A stretch of DNA of 37,483 nt from Acidobacteriota bacterium (GCA_020201365.1 JAIVGV010000277.1:1-37483), one strand, 5' to 3'. Shown: positions 6,591 through 32,690, counted from the stretch's first letter. The notes: a model not told the origin generated them from the letters alone. Program-made: numbers and translations.

Positions 6591-7164
6591 CCTTCTTGGC
6601 GGGAAGCCTTCCGAGAAAGCCGCCCGCCCCCATCTGGTTGACCGCGCCTTTCCCTTCCGCGGTCGTCACAGGCACGGACACCCGGCTGAGACGTTGAAAC
6701 CCACGAACACGAGAGACGCGCGCCTCGCGCCCCACGTCCACCCGAGCGCCGCAATGGGGCAAGCGACTCGCACGGACTCGCCCCCGCACGCCCCTCCCCC
6801 TTAACGCCGCGACCGACGTTCGACCCCCGCATCGTCGCCGAGACAAGTGCACACCGAGCGAAGACAATTATTGCGTTCGACGCCGCTCCTAATGGATAAT
6901 GTGCCGCCACTCTCCCGGCACAGAGGACAGAGCGAGGTTCGTCTGCGAGGCTCGGTTGGTAGGCGAGGGGTACTTCTCACGCGCGCCGTCGCGCCGTTGC
7001 GGGACGTGTCAGTCGCCGCGACGCCGCGAGGTTTTGAGCCCGCTCACGGCGCGGAAAATCAGGAGCACAGAGCGACACCAGCACCCGACGCACCTTGAGT
7101 CAAGGCTCGTGTGCCACTAGCCGGGCGTGACCCGGCGGCTTGCGAGGCGAGCAAGGCGATTACA

Positions 7165-8361
7165 ATGGCTGCCACTTCCGCAGATCACAACCAGCAGACG
7201 AACCACGCGACCGACGCCCCCGACGGCTCGCGCCAACACTCCCGCGCCGCGCGCGCCGCACAGGCGCGCTGGGTCGAGTCCTTGCGCCGCTCCGACGTGA
7301 CCCGCCTCTGGTCGGAGCTTCACCGCCTCGTGTGCAACCACCCGCTCGTGCGCGCCTCGCACAGCGCGGGGCTGCTCGTCGAGGGGGCGGAGCGCGGCAA
7401 CGCCTACGTCGATCTCACGCAGGAGCTGTTCGTCACGCTGCTCGCCAAGGGTCGCTTCCAGCACTACATCGAGTCCGACATGTCGGACGCAGACATCGAG
7501 TGCGAGATCGGGCAGATCGAGCTGACGAATTTACTCACCGCCGAGCTGCGCAAGCGCCACCCCGAATCCTACCGACTCGCGCGCCGCATCTCGACGATCA
7601 TCCAGTCGAGCGCGAACTTCCGCCGCTTCGACTCACTCGGCACCATCGGCACGGACGACGAGCAGCACCGGCGGCTCGCGGATCGCGTCTATGGTCTCTC
7701 CGAGTGGGCTGACGCCAAACCACGCCGCGGCTTGCAGGAACTCGAACAGCGCATCCAGATGATCCCGGTACGCCAGCGCGACACGCGCATGGTCGGCTGC
7801 ACGGGCGACGCGCAGATCATCATCAGCAACTCCGACTTGGAAGATTTGATCGTCTCGGTGCTCGAAGCCTGCGACTCGCCGGTCGACGTGCGGAGCTTGC
7901 GAAGTCTCGTCATGTCGCGCCTGCCCGTGATGGACATCTACCTCGTCCCCTTGGGCGGCGACGACTCGGACGACGGGCGCGTCTTCGAGCCCGTCGACGG
8001 TCGCGAGAACCCGGAGCAGGACTTGCTGCGGCGCGAGTCGGAGAACGCCGCCGCCGGTTACGTTGACAGATTCCTGAAGGGGCTGCACGCGACCGTGCGC
8101 GGCAAGTCCAAGCAGTACGACCGCATCATCGGCGTGCTCTGGCACTGTTATCTGAGCCCCGATCACGTCACGCAGCTCGAAGCCGCCGCGCGGCTCGGCG
8201 TCTCGGACTCCCTGGTCTCAGACTACCGCCGCCGCATCGAGCAGGAGCTGCGCGCGCTCGCCTTCTCCGAGATCGAGCAGGCGCGCCGCTTCGAGATCAG
8301 CTTGCGTGAGCGCGTGCGCGCGCTCGTCGCCGTCGGCGACGAGGAGGGCGTCGCGGTGTGA
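7165..8361 (+). CDS. Hypothetical regulator with a sigma-70 region-4-like C-terminal HTH and a region-2-like N-terminal segment (atypical long sigma-like protein)
   Basis: The C-terminal segment VTQLEAAARLGVSDSLVSDYRRRIEQELRAL resembles a sigma region 4.2 HTH. The N-terminal YVDLTQELFVTLLAKGRF resembles region 2. They are separated by ~230 aa of unassigned sequence. Start set at ATG 7165 (MAATSADHN). Confidence 0.45.
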   Translation: MAATSADHNQQTNHATDAPDGSRQHSRAARAAQARWVESLRRSDVTRLWSELHRLVCNHPLVRASHSAGLLVEGAERGNAYVDLTQELFVTLLAKGRFQHYIESDMSDADIECEIGQIELTNLLTAELRKRHPESYRLARRISTIIQSSANFRRFDSLGTIGTDDEQHRRLADRVYGLSEWADAKPRRGLQELEQRIQMIPVRQRDTRMVGCTGDAQIIISNSDLEDLIVSVLEACDSPVDVRSLRSLVMSRLPVMDIYLVPLGGDDSDDGRVFEPVDGRENPEQDLLRRESENAAAGYVDRFLKGLHATVRGKSKQYDRIIGVLWHCYLSPDHVTQLEAAARLGVSDSLVSDYRRRIEQELRALAFSEIEQARRFEISLRERVRALVAVGDEEGVAV

Positions 8362-8540: not shown

Positions 8541-9890
8541 ATGCCTTCCAACAGCCACGTCACGGATTACGAGCCGTTGCACCCGCGTCGGCGCGGAGGC
8601 GGGCTCGATGAGCCCGACGCGCTCCGCCCGCGCGCCGTCGTGGTTGATGACGGGGGGCTGTTCGGCGAAGGCGACTCGTTCGCGTCGAGCCGCGCGCGTC
8701 GCGCTGACGGAAGAACTTTCGATCAAGGCGACCAAGTTTCCGATCAGCAGGACGGCGCGGACGCGAAGGATCGCGAGGACGCGCCCGCCCGCGCCGCGCT
8801 CAAGCACGGTCACGCGCTCGCCTACGCCGGGCTCTTCCTCTTCACCTTCGTCGTCTATTTCCGCCCCTACGAGCTCGTCCCCGCGCTCGCGTTCCTCGCG
8901 TCCTCGGTCGCCTTCTCCCTCGCGATCCTCACGCTCCTCATCTACTTCCCGACGCAGCTCGGGCTCGAAGGTAACCTCACCGCCCCCTTGCGCGAGGTGA
9001 AGCTCGCCGCCGCGCTCTGCGTGCTCGCGCTCGCCTCCGTGCCGCTCGCCATCAACCGCGGCGAGGCGTGGGACACTTGGGTTGACTACCTCAAAGTCGT
9101 CCTCATGTTCGTCGTGATGGTCAACGTCATGCGCACCGAGAAGCGGCTGCGTTGGCTTGTGCTGCTGCTGCTCGCGGCGAGCGTCTTCCTGAGCCTCGGC
9201 GCGATCTCCGACTACCGCGCCGGTCGCTTCAACACGGGCGGCGACCGCATCGCGGGCGCGGTCGGCGGCATGTTCGGCAACCCGAACGATCTCGCCATGC
9301 ACCTCGCGACGATGATCCCGCTCGCCTTCACGATGAGCCTCACCGCGCGACCGCTGAAAAAGATCATCTACCTCGCCGCCGCCCTGCTGATGGCGGCCGC
9401 GATCATCTTCACCTTCTCGCGCGGCGGCTTCCTCGGACTCGCCGCCGCCGCGCTCGTGCTCGCCTGGAAGCTCGGTCGCCGCCACCGCGCGGCGGTCGTC
9501 GTCGTCTCAATCGTCGCCGTCGCGTCATTCGTCCTCTTCATGCCGTCCGAGTATTCGGATCGGCTGACGACCATCGTTGACACGGCGCGCGACGTGACGG
9601 GCTCGGCGGGCGCGCGCGAGCAGATACTGATCGTGTCGCTCTCGAACATCGTGCGCCACCCGCTCTTCGGCGTCGGCATGGGCAACTTCCACATCGTCTC
9701 GCTGCACGAGCAGGTGAGCCACAACGCCTACACGCAGGTCGGCGCGGAACTCGGCGTGCCCGCGATGCTCGCCTACCTGCTGTTTCTCCTCGCGCCGTGG
9801 CGACGCCTGCGCCGCGTCGAGCGCGAGACGCTGCCGCTGCGGCGTTCGCGCGACTACTACTGGGCGGTCGGACTTCAAGCCCAACGATGA
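8541..9890 (+). CDS. Second O-antigen ligase / Wzy_C-like polytopic membrane protein
   Basis: About 10 TM helices, FSRGGFLGLAAAALVLAW, and FGVGMGNFH...HNAYTQVGAELGVPAM (Wzy_C signature). It has an ~85-aa charged, non-membrane N-terminal region, so the start is uncertain. Confidence 0.7.
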   Translation: MPSNSHVTDYEPLHPRRRGGGLDEPDALRPRAVVVDDGGLFGEGDSFASSRARRADGRTFDQGDQVSDQQDGADAKDREDAPARAALKHGHALAYAGLFLFTFVVYFRPYELVPALAFLASSVAFSLAILTLLIYFPTQLGLEGNLTAPLREVKLAAALCVLALASVPLAINRGEAWDTWVDYLKVVLMFVVMVNVMRTEKRLRWLVLLLLAASVFLSLGAISDYRAGRFNTGGDRIAGAVGGMFGNPNDLAMHLATMIPLAFTMSLTARPLKKIIYLAAALLMAAAIIFTFSRGGFLGLAAAALVLAWKLGRRHRAAVVVVSIVAVASFVLFMPSEYSDRLTTIVDTARDVTGSAGAREQILIVSLSNIVRHPLFGVGMGNFHIVSLHEQVSHNAYTQVGAELGVPAMLAYLLFLLAPWRRLRRVERETLPLRRSRDYYWAVGLQAQR

Positions 9891-12703
9891 GCGTCGAGAT
9901 CGCTGCCAACATAGTCTTCTGGCTGAGCGCGGCGGCGCTCGCCTACGCCTACCTCGGCTACCCCCTGCTCGTCGCCGCGGTCGCCTCCCTGCGCCCCCGC
10001 TGCGTCCGACGCGACGAAAAATTCTCGCCGCGCGTCTCCGTCGTCATCACCGCCTACAACGAGGAGCGCGACCTCGCCGCCAAACTCGAGAACACGCTCG
10101 CGCTCGACTACCCGAAAGATTTACTCGAAATCATCGTCGCCTCCGACTGCTCGTCCGACCGCACGGACGAGATCGCGCGCTCGTTCGCCGCGCGCGGCGT
10201 GCGACTGCACCGCCAAGCCGAGCGGCGCGGCAAAACGGCGGCGCAGAACGCCGCCGTCGAACTCGCGCGCGGCGACATCATCCTCTTCTCCGACGCCACC
10301 ACGCTCTACCGATCCGACGTGCTGCGCGCGATGCTCCCGAACTTCGCCGACTCGTCAATCGGCTGCGTCGCCGGCCGGCTCATCTACGTTGACCCCGCGC
10401 GGTCGAGCGTCGGGCAGGGCGCGCGCTCCTACTGGGGCTACGAAACTTTCTTGAAGCGCAACGAGAGTCGCGCCTCGTCGCTCATCGGCGTTTCGGGCTG
10501 CCTCTACGCCGTGCGCCGCGACGCATACGTCCCGCTCTACGAGGAGGCGTGCAGCGACTTCATCATCGCCACCAAGATGGTCGAGCAGAACCTGCGCGCC
10601 GTGTACGAGCCCGCAGCCGTCTGCACCGAGGAGACGAACCGGCGCAGCGACAGAGAGATGCGGATGCGCGTCCGCGTCATCACGCAGACCTTCACCGATC
10701 TCTGGCGTCACCGCGCGATGTTGAACCCCCTGCGCGGCGGCTTCTACTCCGTGCAGCTCCTCTCGCACAAAGTCCTGCGCTACCTCGTGCCCGTGTTGCT
10801 CGTCGCCGTCCTCAGCTCTTCCGCCGCGCTCGCGCCGCGCTCCGTCTTCTTCGCGCTCGTCGCCGCGTCGCAGTTACTCTTCTACGCGGCGGCGGTCGCG
10901 TCGCTCCTGCTCGAACGCGCCGGCGTCCACAGCCGACTGCTCGCGCTCCCGCAATACTTCGTCCTCGCCAACGCCGCCGCCCTCGCCGCCTGCTACAAGT
11001 TCGCGCGCGGCGAACGCTACGCCCGCTGGGAGCCGATCCGCGAACAAGCGCACGCGACTGCGAGCGCGACTGCGGACGAAGCGACAGACGACTCGACGCG
11101 CGCGACGACGTTCGACGCGACGGGGGAAACGTCCGTCGAGACGGCGGACGAAACGACGGTCGCCGCGGCGGGTGAGCCGGTTGGCAAGAAAGCGCTGTCG
11201 CTCACGGCGGGCGCGGCGTGGATGATGTTGGCGCGCTCGTTCGCCTTCGCGCTCACGTTCGCCGTGCCGCTGCTGCTCGTGCGCCGGCTGAGCCAGACCG
11301 AGTTCGGTCTCTACAAGCAGATCGTTTTGGTCGTCACGACCGGCGTCATGATCCTCCCGCTCGGCGTCTTCATGAGCGCCTACTACTTCCTGCCGCGCGA
11401 GCGCGAACGCCGACGCCAGATTGTCTGCAACATACTGCTGTTCAACCTCGCGGTCGGGCTCGTCGTCTGCCTGCCGCTCATCACACGTCCGCAACTGCTC
11501 GCCGCGCTCTTGCACAACCCGGAACTGGTCGCGCTCGCGCCGCTCGTCGGCGTCGCACTGCTGCTCTGGATCAACACCTCGACGCTCGAAGCCGTCGCCG
11601 TCGCCAACGGCGAGCTGAAACTCGCCACGCTCTTCATCGTCGCCGATCAGCTCGCCAAAGCCGTGCTGCTCCTCTCCGCCGCGATCCTCTTCGGCACGGT
11701 GCGCGCCGTCGTCCTCGCGATGATCGCGCACGGCGCGTTCGAGTGCGCGCTGCTCCTGGCTTACGTCCGCTCGCGCTTCGGCGCGTTCTGGCGCGGCTTC
11801 GAGTTCGAGACTTTGCGCGCGCAGCTCGCCTACGCGCTGCCGCTCGGCGTCGCGGCGGTCGTCGCCGGAATCTACCTCTACCTCGACAACTACTTCGTCT
11901 CCTACCGCTTCACTCCGGCGGAGTACGCCATCTACGCGACCGGCTGCTTCAACATCCCGCTCGTCGATCTGCTCGCCGCGTCGGTCAACTCCGTGATGAT
12001 CCCGCGCGTCAGCCAACTCCAGAGCGCGGGCGCGCGCCGCGAGATCGTCGTGCTCGTCGCGCGCATGACGCGCAAGCTCGCGGCGTTCAACCTGCCGCTC
12101 TACTTCTTCCTGCTCGTCATGGCGCGCGAATTCATCGTCACGCTCTTCACGACGAACTACCTCGCGAGCCTCCCCATCTTCGTCATCAACATCACGCTCA
12201 TCCCGCTGGGGCTCATCGGCGCGGCATACGATCCCGTCATTCGCGCCTACGCCGAGCACAGATATTTTCTCCTGCGCGTGCGCGTCGTCCTGCTCGCCGC
12301 GCTCGCCGCCGCGCTGTGGTACGTGACGAAAAATTACGGGCTCGTCGGCGCGATCACCGTGATGCTCGCCGTCAACGCGGCGGAGCGTTTCGTCGTCGGC
12401 TGGCGCGTGCGCGGCATCCTCGAAGTCTCCTGGCGTGATCTCCCGCTCTTCAAGGACGTGGGCAAGATCGCCGTCTGCTCGATCCTCGCCGCGAGTGCTG
12501 CGCTCGCCGCGCGCGCCGCGCTCTTCGGCGTCAAGCCGCTCTTCGTGCTCGCCGCGTGCGCCGCCGCGTTCGGCGTCGTTTACGCGGTCGCGCTTCTTCT
12601 GCTCGGCGTGCCTTCGGCGGAAGAGCGCGAAGCCGTCCTGCGCCGCGCGGCACGCCTGCTCAGGCTCGCGCCCACGCGCGGCGCGGTCGATCCCTTGTCG
12701 TGA
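9887..12703 (+). CDS. Fusion protein: N-terminal membrane GT2 glycosyltransferase plus C-terminal Wzx/MOP-type polysaccharide flippase domain
   Basis: ATG 9887 overlaps the upstream TGA (ATGA). GT2 motifs: VSVVITAYNEE, ASDCSSDRT, LFSDAT, VSGCLYAVRR, RMRVRVITQ. An acidic T/A/D/E linker follows (about 11040-11190). Then ~12 TM helices begin AAWMMLARSFAFALTFAVPLLLVRRLSQTEFGLY (polysaccharide-biosynthesis/Wzx-like). There is no stop, and no in-frame ATG/GTG/TTG in the ~40 linker codons read upstream of MM at 11221. Confidence 0.7.
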   Translation: MSVEIAANIVFWLSAAALAYAYLGYPLLVAAVASLRPRCVRRDEKFSPRVSVVITAYNEERDLAAKLENTLALDYPKDLLEIIVASDCSSDRTDEIARSFAARGVRLHRQAERRGKTAAQNAAVELARGDIILFSDATTLYRSDVLRAMLPNFADSSIGCVAGRLIYVDPARSSVGQGARSYWGYETFLKRNESRASSLIGVSGCLYAVRRDAYVPLYEEACSDFIIATKMVEQNLRAVYEPAAVCTEETNRRSDREMRMRVRVITQTFTDLWRHRAMLNPLRGGFYSVQLLSHKVLRYLVPVLLVAVLSSSAALAPRSVFFALVAASQLLFYAAAVASLLLERAGVHSRLLALPQYFVLANAAALAACYKFARGERYARWEPIREQAHATASATADEATDDSTRATTFDATGETSVETADETTVAAAGEPVGKKALSLTAGAAWMMLARSFAFALTFAVPLLLVRRLSQTEFGLYKQIVLVVTTGVMILPLGVFMSAYYFLPRERERRRQIVCNILLFNLAVGLVVCLPLITRPQLLAALLHNPELVALAPLVGVALLLWINTSTLEAVAVANGELKLATLFIVADQLAKAVLLLSAAILFGTVRAVVLAMIAHGAFECALLLAYVRSRFGAFWRGFEFETLRAQLAYALPLGVAAVVAGIYLYLDNYFVSYRFTPAEYAIYATGCFNIPLVDLLAASVNSVMIPRVSQLQSAGARREIVVLVARMTRKLAAFNLPLYFFLLVMAREFIVTLFTTNYLASLPIFVINITLIPLGLIGAAYDPVIRAYAEHRYFLLRVRVVLLAALAAALWYVTKNYGLVGAITVMLAVNAAERFVVGWRVRGILEVSWRDLPLFKDVGKIAVCSILAASAALAARAALFGVKPLFVLAACAAAFGVVYAVALLLLGVPSAEEREAVLRRAARLLRLAPTRGAVDPLS

Positions 12704-12718
12704 GGTGAACTGACCTAG

Positions 12719-14671
12719 ATGTGCGGCATCGCCGGATTCGTGGACGCGGGCGGGCGGCTCTGTGCGGAGGAGCGCGCCGCGCTCGTCGCGCGCATGTGCG
12801 AGGTGATCGCGCACCGCGGACCCGACGAGCAGGGGGCGGAGGTCGTCGGGCAGGCGGCGCTCGGAATGCGTCGGCTGTCGATCATAGACCTCGCCGGAGG
12901 TCACCAGCCGATGCGCGGCTGCGACCCGCGCGTCTCGCTCGTCTTCAACGGCGAGATTTACAACTTCCGCGAGCTGCAGCGCGACCTGGAAGCGCGCGGG
13001 CACAAATTCCACACCCACTCCGACACGGAGACCATCGCGCACGCCTACGAAGAGTACGGCAAGGCTTGCGTCGAACACCTGCGCGGCATGTTCGCCTTCG
13101 CCGTCTGGGACGACTCGAAGCGAGAGCTGTTCGCCGCGCGCGACCGCGCGGGGAAGAAGCCGCTCTATTATTCGTTGACGCCTTCGGGCGCGCTCGTCTT
13201 CGGCTCCGAGTTGAAGTCGCTGTTGCTCCACCCCGAAGTCACGCGCGAAACCAGCCTCGAAGCGCTCGACGCCTATCTCTCATTCGGCTACGTGCCCGAC
13301 CCGCTCTCGATCTTCGTCCGAATCAACAAACTCCCGCCCGGTCACGCGCTCACCTTCGACGGCGCGCGCGCGAGCGTCGAGCAGTATTGGGACTTTCCTT
13401 TCGCGTCCGAAGCGAAGCCGCGAAGCGAGGACGAGTACGTCGCCGAGCTGCGCGAGTTGCTCGACGAAGCCGTGCGCATCCGCCTCGTCGCCGACGTGCC
13501 GCTCGGCGCTTTTCTGTCCGGCGGCGTGGATTCGAGCACGGTCGTGGGCTTGATGGCGCGCCACACGCCACAGCCCGTCAAGACCTTCTCCATCGGCTTC
13601 CGCGAAGACAGCTTCGACGAGCTGAAATACGCGCGCGTCGCCGCCAAGCATTTCGCGACCGACCACCACGAGTTCATCGTCACGCCCGACATCTGCCGCG
13701 TCGTGGACGATCTCGTCTGGCACTTCGACGAGCCGTTCGCCGACTCCTCGTCAATCCCGACGCACGCCGTCTCGCGCCTCGCGCGCGAGCACGTCAAGGT
13801 CGCGCTTTCGGGCGACGGCGGCGACGAGCTGTTCGCGGGCTACACGCGCTACGTCGTTGACCGGCGGCGCGGCTTCTTCGACCGCGTGCCGCGCGCCGTG
13901 CGCGAAGGCTTGATGCTGCCCTTGAGCCGCCGGCTGCCGCACGGCGCGCGGGGGCGCAACTACCTCTACACGAACGCGCACGATCCCACGGGGCGCTACC
14001 TCAACAGCGTCGCCGTCTTCACGCCTCTCAACAAGCGCGCGCTCTACTCGCCGGATTTTCAAAGCGTGCTCGCCGGACGCGCCGACGCCTTCGAGAGCTT
14101 CCGCGAGATCGCGGCGCGCGCGCCCGCGACGGATCAGCTCGCCGCGATGCTCTACCTCGACAGCAAGACCTATCTGCCCGGCGACATCCTGACGAAAGTT
14201 GATCGCATGAGCATGGCGGTCTCGCTCGAAGCGCGCGTGCCGCTCCTCGATCACAAGCTGATGGAGTTCGCCGCGCGCCTGCCCTCGTCGCTGAAGATGC
14301 GCGGGCTCGAAACGAAGCACCTCTTCAAGCGCGCCGTGCGCGGTCTCGTCCCCGACGAGATACTCGACCGCGAGAAGCAGGGCTTCGGCGTCCCCGTCAA
14401 CCGCTGGATCAACGAGGAGCTGCGCGACTACACGCGCGACGTGCTCACCGGCGCGCGCACGCGCTCGCGCGGCTACTTCAACCCACGCTACCTCTCGCTG
14501 CTCTTCGCAGAGCACGAGCGCGGGCGGCGCGACCACTCGACGCAGCTCTGGGCGCTCTTCGTCCTCGAACTCTGGCAGCGCACGTTCATTGACTCCGCGC
14601 CGCCCGAACGCGCGCCCCTGTCCGACGCGCGCGCGCTCGCCGAAGAGACGACCGTCGGCGCGCTCCCGTAA
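12719..14671 (+). CDS. Asparagine synthase family glutamine amidotransferase, paralog 1
   Basis: N-terminal MCGIAGF (class-II GATase nucleophile Cys2), RGPD, RRLSIIDL..GHQPM, FNGEIYN, and PP-loop FLSGGVDSS. Confidence 0.9.
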   Translation: MCGIAGFVDAGGRLCAEERAALVARMCEVIAHRGPDEQGAEVVGQAALGMRRLSIIDLAGGHQPMRGCDPRVSLVFNGEIYNFRELQRDLEARGHKFHTHSDTETIAHAYEEYGKACVEHLRGMFAFAVWDDSKRELFAARDRAGKKPLYYSLTPSGALVFGSELKSLLLHPEVTRETSLEALDAYLSFGYVPDPLSIFVRINKLPPGHALTFDGARASVEQYWDFPFASEAKPRSEDEYVAELRELLDEAVRIRLVADVPLGAFLSGGVDSSTVVGLMARHTPQPVKTFSIGFREDSFDELKYARVAAKHFATDHHEFIVTPDICRVVDDLVWHFDEPFADSSSIPTHAVSRLAREHVKVALSGDGGDELFAGYTRYVVDRRRGFFDRVPRAVREGLMLPLSRRLPHGARGRNYLYTNAHDPTGRYLNSVAVFTPLNKRALYSPDFQSVLAGRADAFESFREIAARAPATDQLAAMLYLDSKTYLPGDILTKVDRMSMAVSLEARVPLLDHKLMEFAARLPSSLKMRGLETKHLFKRAVRGLVPDEILDREKQGFGVPVNRWINEELRDYTRDVLTGARTRSRGYFNPRYLSLLFAEHERGRRDHSTQLWALFVLELWQRTFIDSAPPERAPLSDARALAEETTVGALP

Positions 14672-18486: not shown

Positions 18487-20295
18487 ATGTGCGGGATTAG
18501 TGGCATCGCATTTTCGAGCCGGTCCGGGCGCAGCGTGGACGCCGCGGTGCTGCGGCGCATGTGCGACTCGATCCGCCACCGCGGTCCCGACGACGAGGGC
18601 TACTTCGTCCGAGGCGCGGTCGGTCTCGGCATGCGCCGCCTCTCCATCGTTGACGTGGCGGGCGGTCACCAGCCGATGACGAACGAGGACGGCACCGCCC
18701 GCATCGTCTATAACGGCGAAATCTACAACCACGCCGACTACCGCGAAGAACTCGAAGCGCGCGGGCACACGTACCGGACGCACTGCGACACCGAGACGAT
18801 CCTGCACCTCTACGAGGAGCACGGCGCGGGCGTCGTCGGGCGACTGCGCGGCATGTTCGCCTTCGCGATCTGGGACGAGCGGAAACGCGAGTTGTTCGTC
18901 GCGCGCGACCGCCTCGGCGTCAAGCCCCTGTACTACGTCCACGACGCGGCGGGCTCGCTCTTCTTCGGCTCGGAGATCAAGACGCTCCTCGAAGCCTCCG
19001 CCGTCAAGCCCTCGATCAACTTCGCCGCGCTGCCCGACTATCTCGCCAACCACGCGCCTTCGGGGGAAGAGACACTGTTCGCCGGCGTCAAGCGGCTGCT
19101 GCCCGGTCACACGCTCGTGTGGCGCGACGGCGAGATCAGGATCGAGAAATACTGGGACGTTCATTTCGCGCCGTCGCCGGAAGACGCTAACGGCGGGCGA
19201 CGAAAGAGCGACGAAGAGTACGTCGCCGAGTGGTCTGATCTGTTCCGCACGTCCGTGCGGCTGCGTCTGATGGCTGACGTGCCGCTCGGCATGTTCCTCT
19301 CCGGCGGCATCGACTCTTCGGCAATCGCCGCGACGATGAGCCGGATGGTCGCGGCGCCCGTCAAGACCTTCTCGGTCGCCTTCGCCGAGCGCGAGGCGAA
19401 CGAGTTGAGTTACGCGCGAATCGTCGCGCGCGCCTTCAAGACGGATCACCACGAGGTCGTCGTCTCGCCCGAAGACTTCTGGGGCGCGCTCCCCCAACTC
19501 ATCTGGCACGAGGACGAGCCGCTCGCGCATCCGAGCAGCGTCGCGCTCTACTTCGTCTCGCTGCTCGCCTCGCGCCACGTCAAAGTCGTCTTGACGGGCG
19601 AGGGCTCGGACGAGATGCTCGCGGGCTACGACCGTTACCGCAAGACGGTCTTCAACCTCGCGCTCGGCGCGCGCTACCACGCGGGCGTCCCCGTCTCCGT
19701 GCGGGGCGCCGTCGCGCGCACGGTCGCGCGTCTGCCCGCGTCGCGCGCGAAGCACAAGCTGCGCCGCACGTTCCTCGCGCTCACGCCCGACATCGAGACG
19801 ATCTACTTCGATAACTTCTCCGTCTTCTCGCGCGCGAGGCAGCGCGAACTGCTGACGCCCGAGGCGCGCGCGCGCACCGGCGCGGCGAACCCTTACGCGG
19901 AGGTGACGCGCTGCCTCGCCGAGACCGACGCCGAGACCCTGCTCGGGCGCTTGCTCTACGCCGACATCAAAACTTATCTGCACGAGCTGCTGATGAAGCA
20001 GGATCAGATGAGCATGGCGGCGTCGGTCGAGAGCCGCGTGCCGTTCCTCGATCACAAGCTCGTCGAGTACACGGCGCGCCTGCCCGAACGCCTGAAGCTG
20101 CGCGGGTGGACGACGAAATATATTTTGCGACGGAGCATGAAAGACTTTCTGCCCGAAGCGATCCTGCGGCGGCGCAAGATGGGCTTCCCCGTGCCCGTCG
20201 GCGCGTGGCTGCGCGGCGCGCACACCGGCGTGCTCGACGAGTACGTGCTCGGCGAACGCGCGCGCGCGCGGGGCTTGTTCGACGAGTCGTTCTGA
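18487..20295 (+). CDS. Asparagine synthase family glutamine amidotransferase, paralog 2
   Basis: MCGISGIAF, RGPDDEG, RRLSIVDVAGGHQPM, YNGEIYNH, PP-loop FLSGGIDSS. Confidence 0.9.
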   Translation: MCGISGIAFSSRSGRSVDAAVLRRMCDSIRHRGPDDEGYFVRGAVGLGMRRLSIVDVAGGHQPMTNEDGTARIVYNGEIYNHADYREELEARGHTYRTHCDTETILHLYEEHGAGVVGRLRGMFAFAIWDERKRELFVARDRLGVKPLYYVHDAAGSLFFGSEIKTLLEASAVKPSINFAALPDYLANHAPSGEETLFAGVKRLLPGHTLVWRDGEIRIEKYWDVHFAPSPEDANGGRRKSDEEYVAEWSDLFRTSVRLRLMADVPLGMFLSGGIDSSAIAATMSRMVAAPVKTFSVAFAEREANELSYARIVARAFKTDHHEVVVSPEDFWGALPQLIWHEDEPLAHPSSVALYFVSLLASRHVKVVLTGEGSDEMLAGYDRYRKTVFNLALGARYHAGVPVSVRGAVARTVARLPASRAKHKLRRTFLALTPDIETIYFDNFSVFSRARQRELLTPEARARTGAANPYAEVTRCLAETDAETLLGRLLYADIKTYLHELLMKQDQMSMAASVESRVPFLDHKLVEYTARLPERLKLRGWTTKYILRRSMKDFLPEAILRRRKMGFPVPVGAWLRGAHTGVLDEYVLGERARARGLFDESF

Positions 20296-30602: not shown

Positions 30603-30779
30603 CGCGCAAGCAAAGCGCAGGCGCGCGTCGGCTGTCAAGAACATTCGTCGCGCGTCATCGCGCCGCGATGTGGTATGTTCGTCAGAAGCGGCGCGGGTCG
30701 TCGCGCGTCGTTCCAGAAGCCGCGCGGGTGCGGGTTCGTCGCAGCGGTCGGCGTTAGAGTCGGCAACAGAAATCGAAAG

Positions 30780-32690
30780 ATGTGCGGGATTGTCGGAATA
30801 GTCGGTGAGCTGCCGCGCGCGGAGGCGTCTGCGGTCGTGCGGCGCATGAACGAGTCGATCTTCCACCGCGGACCTGACGAGGGCGGCGAGTGGGCGGACG
30901 ACGGCTTCGCGTTCGGGATGCGCCGCCTCTCGATCATAGACCTCGCGGGCGGTCACCAGCCGATGTGGGACGAGCCGACGCGGACGGGCGTCGTCTTCAA
31001 CGGCGAGATCTACAACTACCGCGCTTTGCGCGAACGACTCGAAGCGCGCGGCGTCACGGGCTGGGCGACGCGCAGCGATACGGAAGTTGTGCTGCGGACT
31101 CTCGTCGAGGACGGCGAAGCGGGCATACACACCTGGAACGGCATGTTCGCCGTCGCCGCGTGGGACGCGCGCGCGAAAAAGTTGACGCTCGTGCGCGACC
31201 GGATGGGCGTCAAGCCGCTCTACTACTTTTGGGACGGGAAAAATTTTCTCTTCGCCTCGGAGATCAAGGCGCTGCTCGCGTCCGGGCTCGTCGCGCGGCG
31301 CGTGAATCGGCAAGCCGTGTGGGACTACCTGACGTTCCGCTACGTGCCGGAGCCCGAAACGGTCTGGGAGGACGTGCGCAAACTCCCGCCCGGACACCTG
31401 CTGCGCTTCGGGCGCGGCGGCGAGCCGCAGGTCGTCCGCTACTGGGAGAGCGATGTCGTGGCGGACGAGCGCGAGCCGCGCGACGACGCGGAAGTGGAGC
31501 GCGAGTTCGCCGCGCTGTTCGAGGACGCGGTGAATCTGCGGCTCGTCGCGTCGGACGTGCCGGTGGGAGTTTTCCTGAGCGGCGGTTTGGATTCGAGCGC
31601 GATCGCGGCGGCGGCGGTCGAGCAGGGGCACCAGAACTTTCACACCTTCTCGGTCGGCTTCGACGACGGCGGCGACGACGATGAGCTGCCCTTCGCGCGG
31701 CGCGTCGCCGAGCACGTCGGCGCGCGGCATCATGAAGTCGTCGTTAATCAAAAGCAGTTTCTCGACGAACTGCCGGAAGTCGTGCGCGCGGCTGACGAGC
31801 CGTTAGCCGATCTCACGCTCGTGCCGCTGCTCGCCGTCTCGCGGCTCGCGCGGCGTGACGTGAAGGTCGTGCTCTCCGGCGAGGGGAGCGACGAGATTCT
31901 GGCGGGCTACAACCTGGATCAGATGGAGCGCGAGTGGGATCGCGTGCGGGCGATTCAGGGGCGCGTGCCGCGCGCGGTGCTCGCGTCGGGCGCGGTGCTC
32001 TCGAAGATCGGTCGGGCGCGCGGCGTCGGTCAGAAGTTCGAGAAGCTCGCGGGCGTGCCGCTCGCCGAGTGGAACAGGCGCGCGCTGCCGCACATGACGC
32101 GCTACTTCGATCAGGGTGAGAAAGAGAACTTGTGGCGGGGCGAGTCGCACGCGGATTCGGATCGCATCCTCGAAGCGCAGTACGCGGCGGCGCGATCAAA
32201 CGATCCGCTGCAACAGTTGCTCGCCGTCTATCAGAAGTCCTGGCTCGTCGAAGACCTGTTGATGAAGGCTGACAAGATGACGATGGCGACCTCGCTCGAA
32301 GCGCGCACGCCGTTTCTGGACTTCCGCTTGGTCGAGTGGGCGAACCGACAGCCGAACCGCGTGAAGGTCAGGCGCGAGCGTTCCGGCCTCTACACGACGA
32401 AGAGCGTGCTGCGCCGCTTCTGCGCGACTCGTCTGCCGCGCGAAATCCTCACGCGCCCGAAAAAAGGTTTCCCCGTCCCCGCCTACCGCTGGCTGCGCGA
32501 GGGGCTCGACTCGTGGGCGCGCGACACGCTGCTCGGCGCGGAGAGCCGACTCGCGCGCGCGTTCGACCGCGAAGCCGTGAGCCGCACCGTCGAAGACGCG
32601 CGGCAGGGAATCGGCGACGCGAGACACCGCGTGTGGCTGCTCCTCATACTCGAAACTTGGCTGCGCGTTTGGGACGCACAACTCGCGTGA
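30780..32690 (+). CDS. Asparagine synthase family glutamine amidotransferase, paralog 3
   Basis: MCGIVGIVG at ATG 30780 (the catalytic Cys must be residue 2, so the track extension from 30675 is rejected). RGPDEGG, RRLSIIDLAGGHQPM, FNGEIYNY, PP-loop FLSGGLDSS. Confidence 0.9.
   Translation: MCGIVGIVGELPRAEASAVVRRMNESIFHRGPDEGGEWADDGFAFGMRRLSIIDLAGGHQPMWDEPTRTGVVFNGEIYNYRALRERLEARGVTGWATRSDTEVVLRTLVEDGEAGIHTWNGMFAVAAWDARAKKLTLVRDRMGVKPLYYFWDGKNFLFASEIKALLASGLVARRVNRQAVWDYLTFRYVPEPETVWEDVRKLPPGHLLRFGRGGEPQVVRYWESDVVADEREPRDDAEVEREFAALFEDAVNLRLVASDVPVGVFLSGGLDSSAIAAAAVEQGHQNFHTFSVGFDDGGDDDELPFARRVAEHVGARHHEVVVNQKQFLDELPEVVRAADEPLADLTLVPLLAVSRLARRDVKVVLSGEGSDEILAGYNLDQMEREWDRVRAIQGRVPRAVLASGAVLSKIGRARGVGQKFEKLAGVPLAEWNRRALPHMTRYFDQGEKENLWRGESHADSDRILEAQYAAARSNDPLQQLLAVYQKSWLVEDLLMKADKMTMATSLEARTPFLDFRLVEWANRQPNRVKVRRERSGLYTTKSVLRRFCATRLPREILTRPKKGFPVPAYRWLREGLDSWARDTLLGAESRLARAFDREAVSRTVEDARQGIGDARHRVWLLLILETWLRVWDAQLA

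Follow-up and report, generated by a model that had tools for sequence, protein, structure and literature searches.

The region of interest lies within a 37,483-nt contig (the window; GCA_020201365.1, JAIVGV010000277.1) of an Acidobacteriota bacterium, where three genes follow each other on the plus strand: a gene for a 449-aa Wzy_C/O-antigen-ligase-like membrane protein at 8541–9890, a candidate polymerase (Pfam Wzy_C, 1.3e-19), a fused gene of 938 codons and a TGA stop at 9887–12703, and a gene for an AsnB-type amidotransferase at 12719–14671 (Pfam Asn_synthase, 3e-115), beginning 15 nt beyond the stop of the fused gene. The AsnB-type gene belongs to a conserved cassette, and the order Wzy, GT2, flippase, AsnB was kept in loci L009, L010 and L048. 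Scored against the models of the XrtA/PEP-CTERM-associated EPS locus, the neighbouring genes stayed below each of the following cut-offs: the AsnB-type protein reached 716 against 817 for TIGR03108 and the Wzy_C protein 103 (102.6) against 188 for TIGR03097, and the scores for TIGR03087 and TIGR03088 were 231 against 317 and 159 against 409, respectively. Neither an initiating phosphoglycosyl transferase nor a GT-C partner was found among the ORFs scanned, and orthologs of the soluble GT2 and of the methyltransferase domain described below were not found in the genome (86% complete). The nearest database proteins carry names pointing to Pyrinomonadaceae.

The plus-strand frame is stop-free from 9797 to 12703 and would give 968 aa if counted from a GTG. 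The ATG at 9887, which gives the 938-aa protein P0001, forms an ATGA overlap with the stop of the Wzy_C gene upstream. It also agrees with the start of homologous proteins, the BLAST alignments of which begin at residue 1. This confirmed the single 938-codon frame recognized in the first-pass annotation, with a GT2 glycosyltransferase, a linker and a flippase encoded in succession. The lack of an in-frame start noticed there for the linker was borne out across aa 370–445, where no ATG, GTG or TTG was found; the two Met codons placed there at 11221 do fall inside the first flippase helix, albeit one base further on (11222–11227). Both activities reside in one polypeptide, as had been proposed, with no usable internal start left for a separate flippase. 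A 785-aa ORF on the opposite strand (10874–13231) was read as a by-product of the approximately 68% G+C content.

The first module (aa 1–386) is a membrane GT2 resembling PcManGT of Pyrobaculum calidifontis (PDB 6yv7). It starts with a transmembrane helix at 9890–9991 (aa 2–35; AlphaFold2 helix H2-35, Wimley-White dG -8.4) that aligns with the N-terminal helix of PcManGT and would be oriented with its N-terminus outside and its C-end inside. The GT-A catalytic domain of family GT2 follows at 10028–10651 (aa 48–255; Pfam PF00535 and PF13641), with Glycos_transf_2 (PF00535) scoring 85.4 bits over aa 51–214 against a cut-off of 23.3. The 6yv7 structure was matched both by sequence (E 2.8e-23 over aa 15–327) and, as the best structural match, by Foldseek (E 1.4e-12, target TM-score 0.79). 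D87, D136 and D224 were invariant in a 22-sequence family alignment. At D136, where GT2 enzymes have the DxD metal/nucleotide motif, the family reads D-A-T instead, and D224, a candidate for the catalytic-base Asp, aligns with the Asp pair of PcManGT.

The interface and membrane helices of this module occupy 10646–11005 (aa 254–373, from AlphaFold2 helices and hydrophobicity): an amphipathic helix (hydrophobic moment 0.52 for aa 254–274) is followed by three hydrophobic ones at about aa 298–315, 320–344 and 353–373 (moments 0.11–0.22). The amphipathic helix carries an R-x-R-V-R-V...Q motif where QxxRW would stand, with R261, R263 and Q267 invariant in the same alignment. The module closes with a conserved Arg-rich end at 11006–11044 (aa 374–386; G375, R377, W381, E382 and R385 invariant), probably cytoplasmic, and stand-alone GT2 orthologs end a few to about 20 residues beyond this motif. 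P0001 shares with PcManGT the N-terminal helix, the GT-A fold, the amphipathic R-x-R...Q helix and the C-terminal membrane helices at 24% identity, and differs from it in one further hydrophobic helix (aa 353–373), in the conserved Arg-rich tail and in the fusion itself, PcManGT not being joined to a flippase. Three antiparallel membrane helices are described for PcManGT in PMC10569066, and its mannosyltransferase activity is presented in PMC8993221 as proposed and not experimentally confirmed.

The second module, at 11192–12664 (aa 436–926), is by profile and fold a member of the MOP superfamily, a PST/Wzx-type flippase with predicted translocation activity. Both Polysacc_synt_3 (PF13440; aa 463–762, 69.7 bits against 23) and Polysacc_synt (PF01943; aa 440–712, 62.8 bits against 28.2) exceeded their cut-offs. 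The score for NCBIfam NF007773 ("MOP flippase family protein") was 34.9 bits against 273, the model being an equivalog for one narrow group. In the model of the flippase, 14 predicted helices lie between aa 439 and 905, followed by a C-terminal amphipathic helix. Foldseek matched it to MurJ chains (9nu8, 9nu5, 7wax, 6nc6, 7waw, 9ukv, 6nc8 and 5t77) with target TM-scores of 0.56–0.77, six of the eight listed chains being at 0.72–0.77, and to WzxE chains with 0.63–0.74 (9g9p, 0.74). The likeness to WzxE (9g9p and related) and MurJ (5t77, 6nc6, 7wax) is one of fold, at 12–17% identity; the helix number is that of MurJ, compared with 12 for WzxE (PMC11706664). As with other Wzx/PST flippases, the locus contains Wzy-like genes, while the covalent junction of the N-terminus to a membrane glycosyltransferase sets P0001 apart from WzxE and MurJ. 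Stand-alone flippases of 515–530 aa were 50–57% identical to the module.

Both modules were intact and well modelled by AlphaFold2 (mean pLDDT 89.8), and pLDDT fell below 50 only at aa 389–433 and 929–938. The former stretch, at 11051–11185, is the acidic, disordered Thr/Ala/Asp/Glu linker, in good agreement with the approximate limits of 11040–11190 given earlier. Its third-position G+C is 0.80 compared with 0.91 in the domains. It is poorly conserved, 51 aa long in P0001 and 47 aa in its relative P0003, and the linker of another fused protein, P0004, is of a Gly/Ala/Asp type unrelated to that of P0001.

Whether the two modules fit the membrane together had been left undecided by the first-pass annotation and was approached by comparison with other fusions. 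In 20 of 21 tandem GT2-GT2 proteins, one extra hydrophobic 19-mer stood between the modules; it was absent from 9 of 11 proteins joining the membrane GT2 to a soluble GT2, the sole such segment in the other two being the strand that opens the second GT-A domain, and from all five direct or triple fusions. Since tandem GT2s need an extra helix and soluble-GT2 fusions none, the GT2 module would end in the cytoplasm, and an even number of its three C-terminal hydrophobic helices would cross the membrane. Soluble GT2-flippase and flippase-methyltransferase fusions put both flippase ends in the cytoplasm, so that the GT2 module probably ends on the side where the flippase begins, and the topology appears compatible. 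Hydrophobicity by itself permits four spanning helices, which would place the linker outside the cell, an arrangement that only the comparative argument excludes.

The survey set comprised 101 family genomes, 80 of which had a match. The fused form was present in one of the 101 (G000) and in none of 38 metagenome loci, and GT2 and flippase genes were adjacent but separate in 14 other family genomes, in line with the earlier statement that the two are normally separate polypeptides, which held for most relatives. On one contig, as in 47 of the 80, the two matches were always on the same strand, GT2 then flippase, with a gap below 250 nt in 12 of the 47. In G015 both ORFs share one frame divided by a single TAA, and in G003 the spacer is 108 nt long with five TGA. 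Of the 80 genomes with a match, 20 had a GT2 without flippase match (E<=1e-30) and five more had the flippase match on a different contig, indicating that the partnership is not obligatory. As to conservation of the fusion among relatives, P0002, P0003, P0004 and P0100 were fused as well, albeit with that single occurrence among the family genomes. In both trees P0001 and P0003 formed a clade (99* and 100*), and P0004 paired with the unfused G003 (87 and 100*), which suggests at least two independent fusions.

Judged by these comparisons, the fusion of the two neighbouring operon genes is rare and derived, a local variant of an ordinary pathway. The idea of a special design was thus weakened, the G015 ortholog differing by one in-frame TAA, and so was the element of surprise, because other GT2-flippase fusions are common in the family: a soluble GT2 is joined to the flippase in 28 of 87 flippase rows. 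In the soluble GT2-flippase(-methyltransferase) fusions of Blastocatellia (P0015, P0020–P0059), the flippase is of the same family, approximately 50% identical, and the glycosyltransferase is likewise N-terminal to it; their GT2, however, is soluble, a domain of about 320 aa with only 24–36% identity to that of P0001 over local stretches of about 100–230 residues, and a methyltransferase often follows the flippase, whereas the partner in P0001 is a membrane GT2. Triple fusions (P0005, 1274 aa; G018, G030, G043) have the same first and last modules in the same order as P0001, but retain a soluble GT2 between them, and P0005 is placed elsewhere in both trees. As a lead only, the protein atlas hints at such architectures in other phyla.

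The best reading of the locus, with a probability of about 0.7, is that a soil acidobacterium carries a genuine stop-loss fusion within an exopolysaccharide operon of the Wzx/Wzy type. Two adjacent co-directional genes, the first for an integral-membrane GT2 with the minimal cellulose-synthase-like (PcManGT-like) fold and the second for a MOP/Wzx flippase, would have come into one frame by loss of the intervening stop codon and spacer, the disordered linker of about 45 residues probably representing the former 3' tail, the intergenic spacer and the 5' end of the two genes. The GT2, whose N-terminus would lie outside and whose catalytic domain and C-end would be cytoplasmic, would add a sugar to an undecaprenyl-diphosphate-linked repeat unit at the inner membrane face; the tethered flippase, starting in the cytoplasm, would carry the finished unit to the periplasm, where it may be polymerized by the Wzy-like protein, the product of the translationally coupled gene immediately upstream. 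The fusion would hold transferase and exporter close together at a ratio of 1:1, with no new chemistry. A plausible benefit is that fewer dead-end lipid-linked intermediates would occupy the lipid carrier; glycosyltransferase activity in the absence of a flippase is reported in PMC11706664 to be probably lethal through und-P sequestration. The rarity of the fused form in genomes and metagenome loci indicates that it is not generally favoured by selection, so it may be neutral.

The first-pass annotation had gone further and suggested a hybrid of the Wzx/Wzy and synthase-dependent pathways. In such a composite machine, the GT2 helices, which resemble half a cellulose-synthase channel, would dock on the flippase, and either transfer and translocation would be coupled or a short processive product would be threaded through the MOP domain. 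Foldseek does place BcsA and hyaluronan synthases directly after PcManGT, and in BcsA, class I hyaluronan synthase, NodC and PgaC, as in the GT2 module, interface and membrane helices come after a GT-A core; the strict gene order in the 47 genomes, the repeated independent fusion of the same modules and a third hydrophobic helix and Arg-rich tail conserved beyond the need of a plain membrane anchor point the same way. Processive membrane synthases carry the motif Q(Q/R)xRW on the interface helix. Its tryptophan is absent from P0001, and the hydrophobic helices, one N-terminal and three C-terminal (3–4 in all), are too few for a channel of its own. The NCBIfam matches to PgaC_IcaA (61.6 bits against 422.3) and NodC (43.8 against 550) are weak and far below the equivalog cut-offs, and the best fold match, PcManGT, is no channel. 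Together with a translationally coupled Wzy-like polymerase gene upstream, the separate proteins of most relatives and the long, disordered, fast-evolving linker, this leaves the hybrid unsupported and the composite machine unlikely. The AlphaFold model, examined for a domain interface, gave a pTM of 0.62 with no confident interface and hence no evidence of a fixed contact between the modules.

Even less probable is a three-component decoration system, in which the GT2 would make an undecaprenyl-phosphate monosaccharide, as do GtrB, ArnC and DPMS, and the fused MOP module would flip it for decoration of the polymer in the periplasm. In favour of this, the GT2 has a membrane anchor and C-terminal helices, and DPMS, GtrB (sll0501) and ArnC were among the weak PDB matches, but these span only the first ~100 residues of GT-A, with E values of 1.6e-6 to 0.3 compared with 6e-26 for PcManGT, whose match spans almost all of the module. 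Full-length similarity to solved members of the GtrB/ArnC/DPMS type was lacking, the aligned part being limited to aa ~47–152 (E 1.6e-6 for 5mlz, 6e-5 to 1e-4 for sll0501 and 0.28–0.32 for ArnC). Also against it stand the lack of a GT-C partner among the scanned ORFs and the fusion of the same flippase clade to soluble GT2s of the repeat-unit type and to methyltransferases; the known flippases of three-component systems belong to the small GtrA or ArnE/F type and not to the MOP superfamily.

Two ordinary genes might also owe their joint frame to sequencing or assembly, with a stop lost or the frame shifted in error between them. The window does belong to a fragmented MAG (584 contigs, 86% complete), and the closest ortholog pattern (G015) differs by a single in-frame stop, but such an artefact is hardly credible with the same frame recovered in other sequences and no canonical start codon remaining for a separate flippase. 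In a search of sequencing runs for this exact stretch, the highest share of its words in any run was 0.12. Comparison with other sequences confirmed that the fusion is real and did not arise in assembly. P0002, encoded on a second NCBI contig (20.6 kb), is identical at 936 of 938 residues and throughout the linker; P0003 (JGI, 934 aa), with 85% full-length identity, has the same architecture and a linker four codons shorter; and P0004 and P0100 (945 aa, ENA and NCBI) show this architecture in a separate lineage. In two soil contigs from two other studies, approximately 90% identical, the stretch across the linker measures 109 and 136 nt compared with 142 nt, the differences of 33 and 6 nt each being a multiple of three.

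The fused gene lies on a contig which is the entire 37,483-bp contig C533 of a metagenome-assembled genome (G000; 4.1 Mb in 584 contigs, 86% complete), with a G+C content of ~62–72% along its length. A stop-free plus-strand frame spans positions 9797–12703 and codes, from the ATG at 9887, for a protein of 938 residues (P0001). This start codon shares bases with the stop codon of the Wzy_C gene just before it (ATGA), and the start residue is shared by the homologues. Pfam profiles recognized Glycos_transf_2 at aa 51–214 (85 bits) and Polysacc_synt_3 and Polysacc_synt at aa 440–762 (70 and 63 bits, respectively), all far over the cut-offs. Neither ATG, GTG nor TTG is present in frame within aa 370–445, and the first Met pair (11222–11227) already sits within the first flippase helix, so that a complete stand-alone flippase cannot be produced from this gene. 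The single GT2-linker-flippase frame without internal start described in the first-pass annotation was, thus, borne out by the ORF, the Pfam matches and the start-codon scan. On the opposite strand, an antisense 785-aa ORF (10874–13231, minus) is read as a high-G+C artefact.

The AlphaFold2 model of P0001, built from a 68-row alignment (mean pLDDT 89.8, pTM 0.62), was disordered only in the Thr/Ala/Asp/Glu linker (aa 389–433) and in the last ten residues. The N-terminal GT2 module was modeled as a long N-terminal helix, a GT-A domain and an amphipathic helix (aa 254–274), after which the model and the hydrophobicity placed three hydrophobic helices (aa ~298–315, 320–344 and 353–373), the module ending with a conserved Arg-rich motif. 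The C-terminal flippase module had 14 helices and a terminal amphipathic helix. The best Foldseek match of the GT2 module was the archaeal membrane GT2 PcManGT (PDB 6yv7; target TM-score 0.79), followed by cellulose and hyaluronan synthases, while the flippase module matched MurJ (target TM-score 0.56–0.77; 0.72–0.77 in six of the eight listed chains) and WzxE (0.63–0.74). By sequence, 6yv7 was the only solved protein matching almost the whole GT2 module (E 2.8e-23; profile E 6e-26), and a profile built from 22 stand-alone orthologs of the GT2 gave no other full-length match in the PDB. Both parts of P0001 belong to known families: GT2/GT-A enzymes closest to PcManGT and the Wzx-type flippases of the MOP/PST group.

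That the fused frame is a sequencing or assembly error is very improbable in view of independent contigs and proteins with like architecture, which confirmed the fusion as originally claimed. The 90% cluster of P0001 includes a second NCBI sequence from another, 20.6-kb contig, which is identical at 936 of 938 residues and throughout the linker. P0003, a 934-aa protein from a JGI metagenome, has the same architecture at 85% full-length identity, its diverged linker having 47 residues against 51 in P0001. Two further 945-aa proteins (P0004 and P0100, from ENA and an NCBI Pyrinomonadaceae MAG, respectively) are also fused, through an unrelated Gly/Ala/Asp-rich linker. Finally, in two contigs of ~90% identity that come from further soil studies the linker is bridged by 109 and 136 nt compared to 142 nt here; the differences are multiples of three, which weakly supports the open frame. 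A search of sequencing runs for this exact sequence gave a highest share of sampled words of 0.12, too small to name a habitat, and no run containing it. Alignment of four soil and rhizosphere runs at 85% likeness recovered relatives alone and left 11058–11151 uncovered.

Kyte-Doolittle and Wimley-White scans detected three hydrophobic segments downstream of the GT-A domain, the third with a low hydrophobic moment (0.11), and hydrophobicity by itself is ambiguous on the side of the linker. With all three segments crossing the membrane, the linker would lie in the periplasm, an arrangement incompatible with a flippase starting in the cytoplasm. This simple helix count, putting the linker outside the cell, was dropped on the evidence of natural fusion reporters, which were scored for a hydrophobic 19-mer with dG ≤ −2.5 between or after the modules. 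In the tandem membrane GT2-GT2 proteins (21 proteins from P0102–P0129, P0066, P0071 and others, ~800 aa) the N-terminal helix of the second module has to enter from the outer side for its catalytic domain to stay cytoplasmic; exactly one added hydrophobic 19-mer was present between the modules in 20 of the 21, including P0114, which is unreliable because of an incomplete first match, and the exception scored −1.7. The fusions of a membrane GT2 to a soluble GT2 had no such 19-mer within 60 residues past the module end in 9 of 11 cases, and the sole passing segment in the other two consisted of the second GT-A domain's first beta-strand and motif. It was also absent from all five direct and triple fusions. 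The tandem and soluble-GT2 patterns both require a cytoplasmic end of the membrane GT2 module; one of its three C-terminal hydrophobic helices probably does not span the membrane. The MOP flippases have both termini in the cytoplasm, and the fusions of the flippase to soluble GT2 and methyltransferase domains, together with this topology, place both its ends there. A cytoplasmic end of the GT2 module also agrees with the Arg-rich motif after its last helix and with PcManGT, for which PMC10569066 describes three antiparallel membrane helices. Judged by comparison with the natural fusions, the orientations of the two modules appear compatible and the P0001 fusion topologically workable, which settles the point on which the first-pass annotation had made its claim depend.

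The genes surrounding the fusion are all on the plus strand and encode two Wzy_C proteins, a NAD-dependent epimerase/dehydratase, an acyl-CoA-ligase-like enzyme, three AsnB-type glutamine amidotransferases, two GT4 enzymes, a heparinase II/III-like protein, an ATP-grasp protein, a polysaccharide deacetylase, UDP-glucose dehydrogenase, a methyltransferase and beta-helix proteins. Their best NCBIfam matches were to XrtA/PEP-CTERM-associated models, all under the curated cut-offs; this included TIGR03108 (XrtA/PEP-CTERM amidotransferase) for the AsnB paralogs at 12719–14671 and 18487–20295, the third paralog (30675–32690) being assigned from Pfam alone. A 416-aa ORF two genes upstream of the fusion (7111–8361, plus) had no Pfam or NCBIfam match. 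This is a Wzx/Wzy-type exopolysaccharide locus, and the upstream Wzy-like gene is translationally coupled to the fused gene.

In the GT2 module, D87, D136 and D224 are invariant and the R-x-R...Q helix is kept; the metal-binding motif in the GT2 family alignment A2 is an invariant D-A-T (aa 136–138; 10292–10300), not DxD. The Trp of QxxRW is missing, the scores are far under the cut-offs of the PgaC, NodC and MftF equivalog models, and polyprenyl-phosphate transferases matched the module only in the initial portion of its GT-A domain. On these grounds, the GT2 is read as a putative membrane-embedded transferase acting on a lipid-linked repeat unit and tethered to the exporting flippase. The fused flippase would then export the repeat unit that the tethered GT2 has modified, and the fusion provides transferase and flippase in equal amounts and keeps them close. 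A plausible gain would be avoidance of glycosyltransferase action without export, which, according to the WzxE paper, is probably lethal via und-P sequestration (PMC11706664). Since the fused state is rare, any benefit would be small or local. The same genome also has at least one other full MOP flippase gene, on another contig (C67; 506-aa frame), and partial matches on C350 and C554, so that P0001 is not its sole Wzx-type flippase.

A sample of 101 genomes from this family, G000 being one of them, gave a match (E ≤ 1e-30) in 80. The match was full-span in three (G000, G003 and G015), the GT2 and flippase matches were on one contig and strand, with GT2 before flippase, in 47 and on separate contigs in five, and 20 and five genomes had a GT2 or a flippase match alone, respectively. 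The gap between the two matches in the 47 one-contig genomes was below 250 nt in 12, 0.8–2.3 kb with separate frames in 26, ~1.1 kb within one open frame of 1283–1324 aa (triple fusions) in three and above 3 kb in six. The ORF lists and read-through ruled out G003 and G015 as full-span fusions, leaving the direct fusion in G000 only (1 of 101). In G015 the genes for a 452-aa GT2 and a 511-aa flippase (locus L009, contig C39, 1498–4410, minus) share one frame and are separated by 18 nt with one TAA dividing them, i.e., one mutation short of fusion, and in G003 the spacer of 108 nt contains five TGA. None of 38 metagenome loci, retrieved with peptide patterns biased to the GT2 end, was fused, and four of them had both modules as separate ORFs; a representative search gave no more direct fusions among the best 150 matches listed.

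G015, G003 and the locus L048 share the flanking genes, with a Wzy-like gene upstream and an AsnB-like gene downstream. The simplest history for the P0001 gene is that two adjacent operon genes would have become fused by losing the intervening stop and spacer. In quick maximum-likelihood trees (SH-aLRT support), P0001 paired with P0003 both for the GT2 module (99) and the flippase (100), and P0004 grouped with the unfused G003 genes (87 and 100), elsewhere in the flippase tree. This separation points to two or more independent origins of the direct fusion, as far as can be judged from such trees. In three other family genomes (G063:C62, G100:C193 and G085:C6) the flippase matches reach upstream as far as query residues 322–362, into the region of the last GT2 helices, and contain stops; these junctions may have decayed or been frameshifted. 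In two metagenome loci (L047, 3–945; L051, 4001–5859) membrane GT2 copies are split across two reading frames by frameshifts or assembly errors; L047 has an intact GT2 copy downstream.

The direct membrane GT2-flippase architecture is present in public databases, where its entries carry no more than the label 'glycosyltransferase' or double JGI names. A full-text literature search of the articles themselves turned up no publication on a GT2-Wzx fusion, although supplementary files might include such architectures, and the passages on fusions in PMC4973528 concern Alg13/Alg14. The direct fusion adds a new architecture to a known pathway and does not amount to a novel type of system. The fusion in one polypeptide reported in the first-pass annotation was confirmed as real, and its topology appears workable; the interpretation attached to it was supported in part, the special mechanism being weakened by the ordinary stop-loss origin and the rarity among relatives. 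Because it is rare even in close relatives, an ordinary stop-loss fusion, taken alone, shows no new mechanism; the mechanism of P0001 is ordinary and its origin simple. A composite conduit, in which addition of the last sugar would pass the lipid-linked unit straight into the joined flippase, was given a probability of about one in ten. The three GT2 membrane helices, resembling half a synthase channel, would in that case pack on the lateral gate of the MOP module. If true, this would be a natural 'glycosylation-gated' exporter, explaining the selection of complete repeat units by Wzx, and P0001 would offer structural biologists a protein ready for study. How Wzx proteins recognize exclusively finished repeat units, and whether they operate in contact with the last glycosyltransferase, is poorly understood, and P0001 is a single, well-predicted polypeptide that could be expressed to probe for a GT-Wzx interface.

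The same modules are joined in other ways as well, making the operon family a set of natural fusions of membrane GT2, soluble GT2, flippase and methyltransferase in several combinations, useful as a Rosetta stone and doubling as built-in topology reporters. A membrane GT2 is joined to a soluble GT2 in P0006–P0019 (~735–750 aa). A soluble GT2 precedes the flippase, which may in turn be followed by a methyltransferase, in 28 of 87 flippase rows, and the membrane GT2, soluble GT2 and flippase are combined in P0005 and in the genomes G018, G030 and G043. The 895-aa P0099 is another join of cassette neighbors, carrying a Wzy_C/O-antigen-ligase-like domain (Pfam match at aa 654–803) after the membrane GT2. 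A protein atlas queried with P0004 returned GT2 plus Polysacc_synt clusters in Ignavibacteriota and Actinomycetota (score 0.90), a lead to further GT2-flippase architectures.
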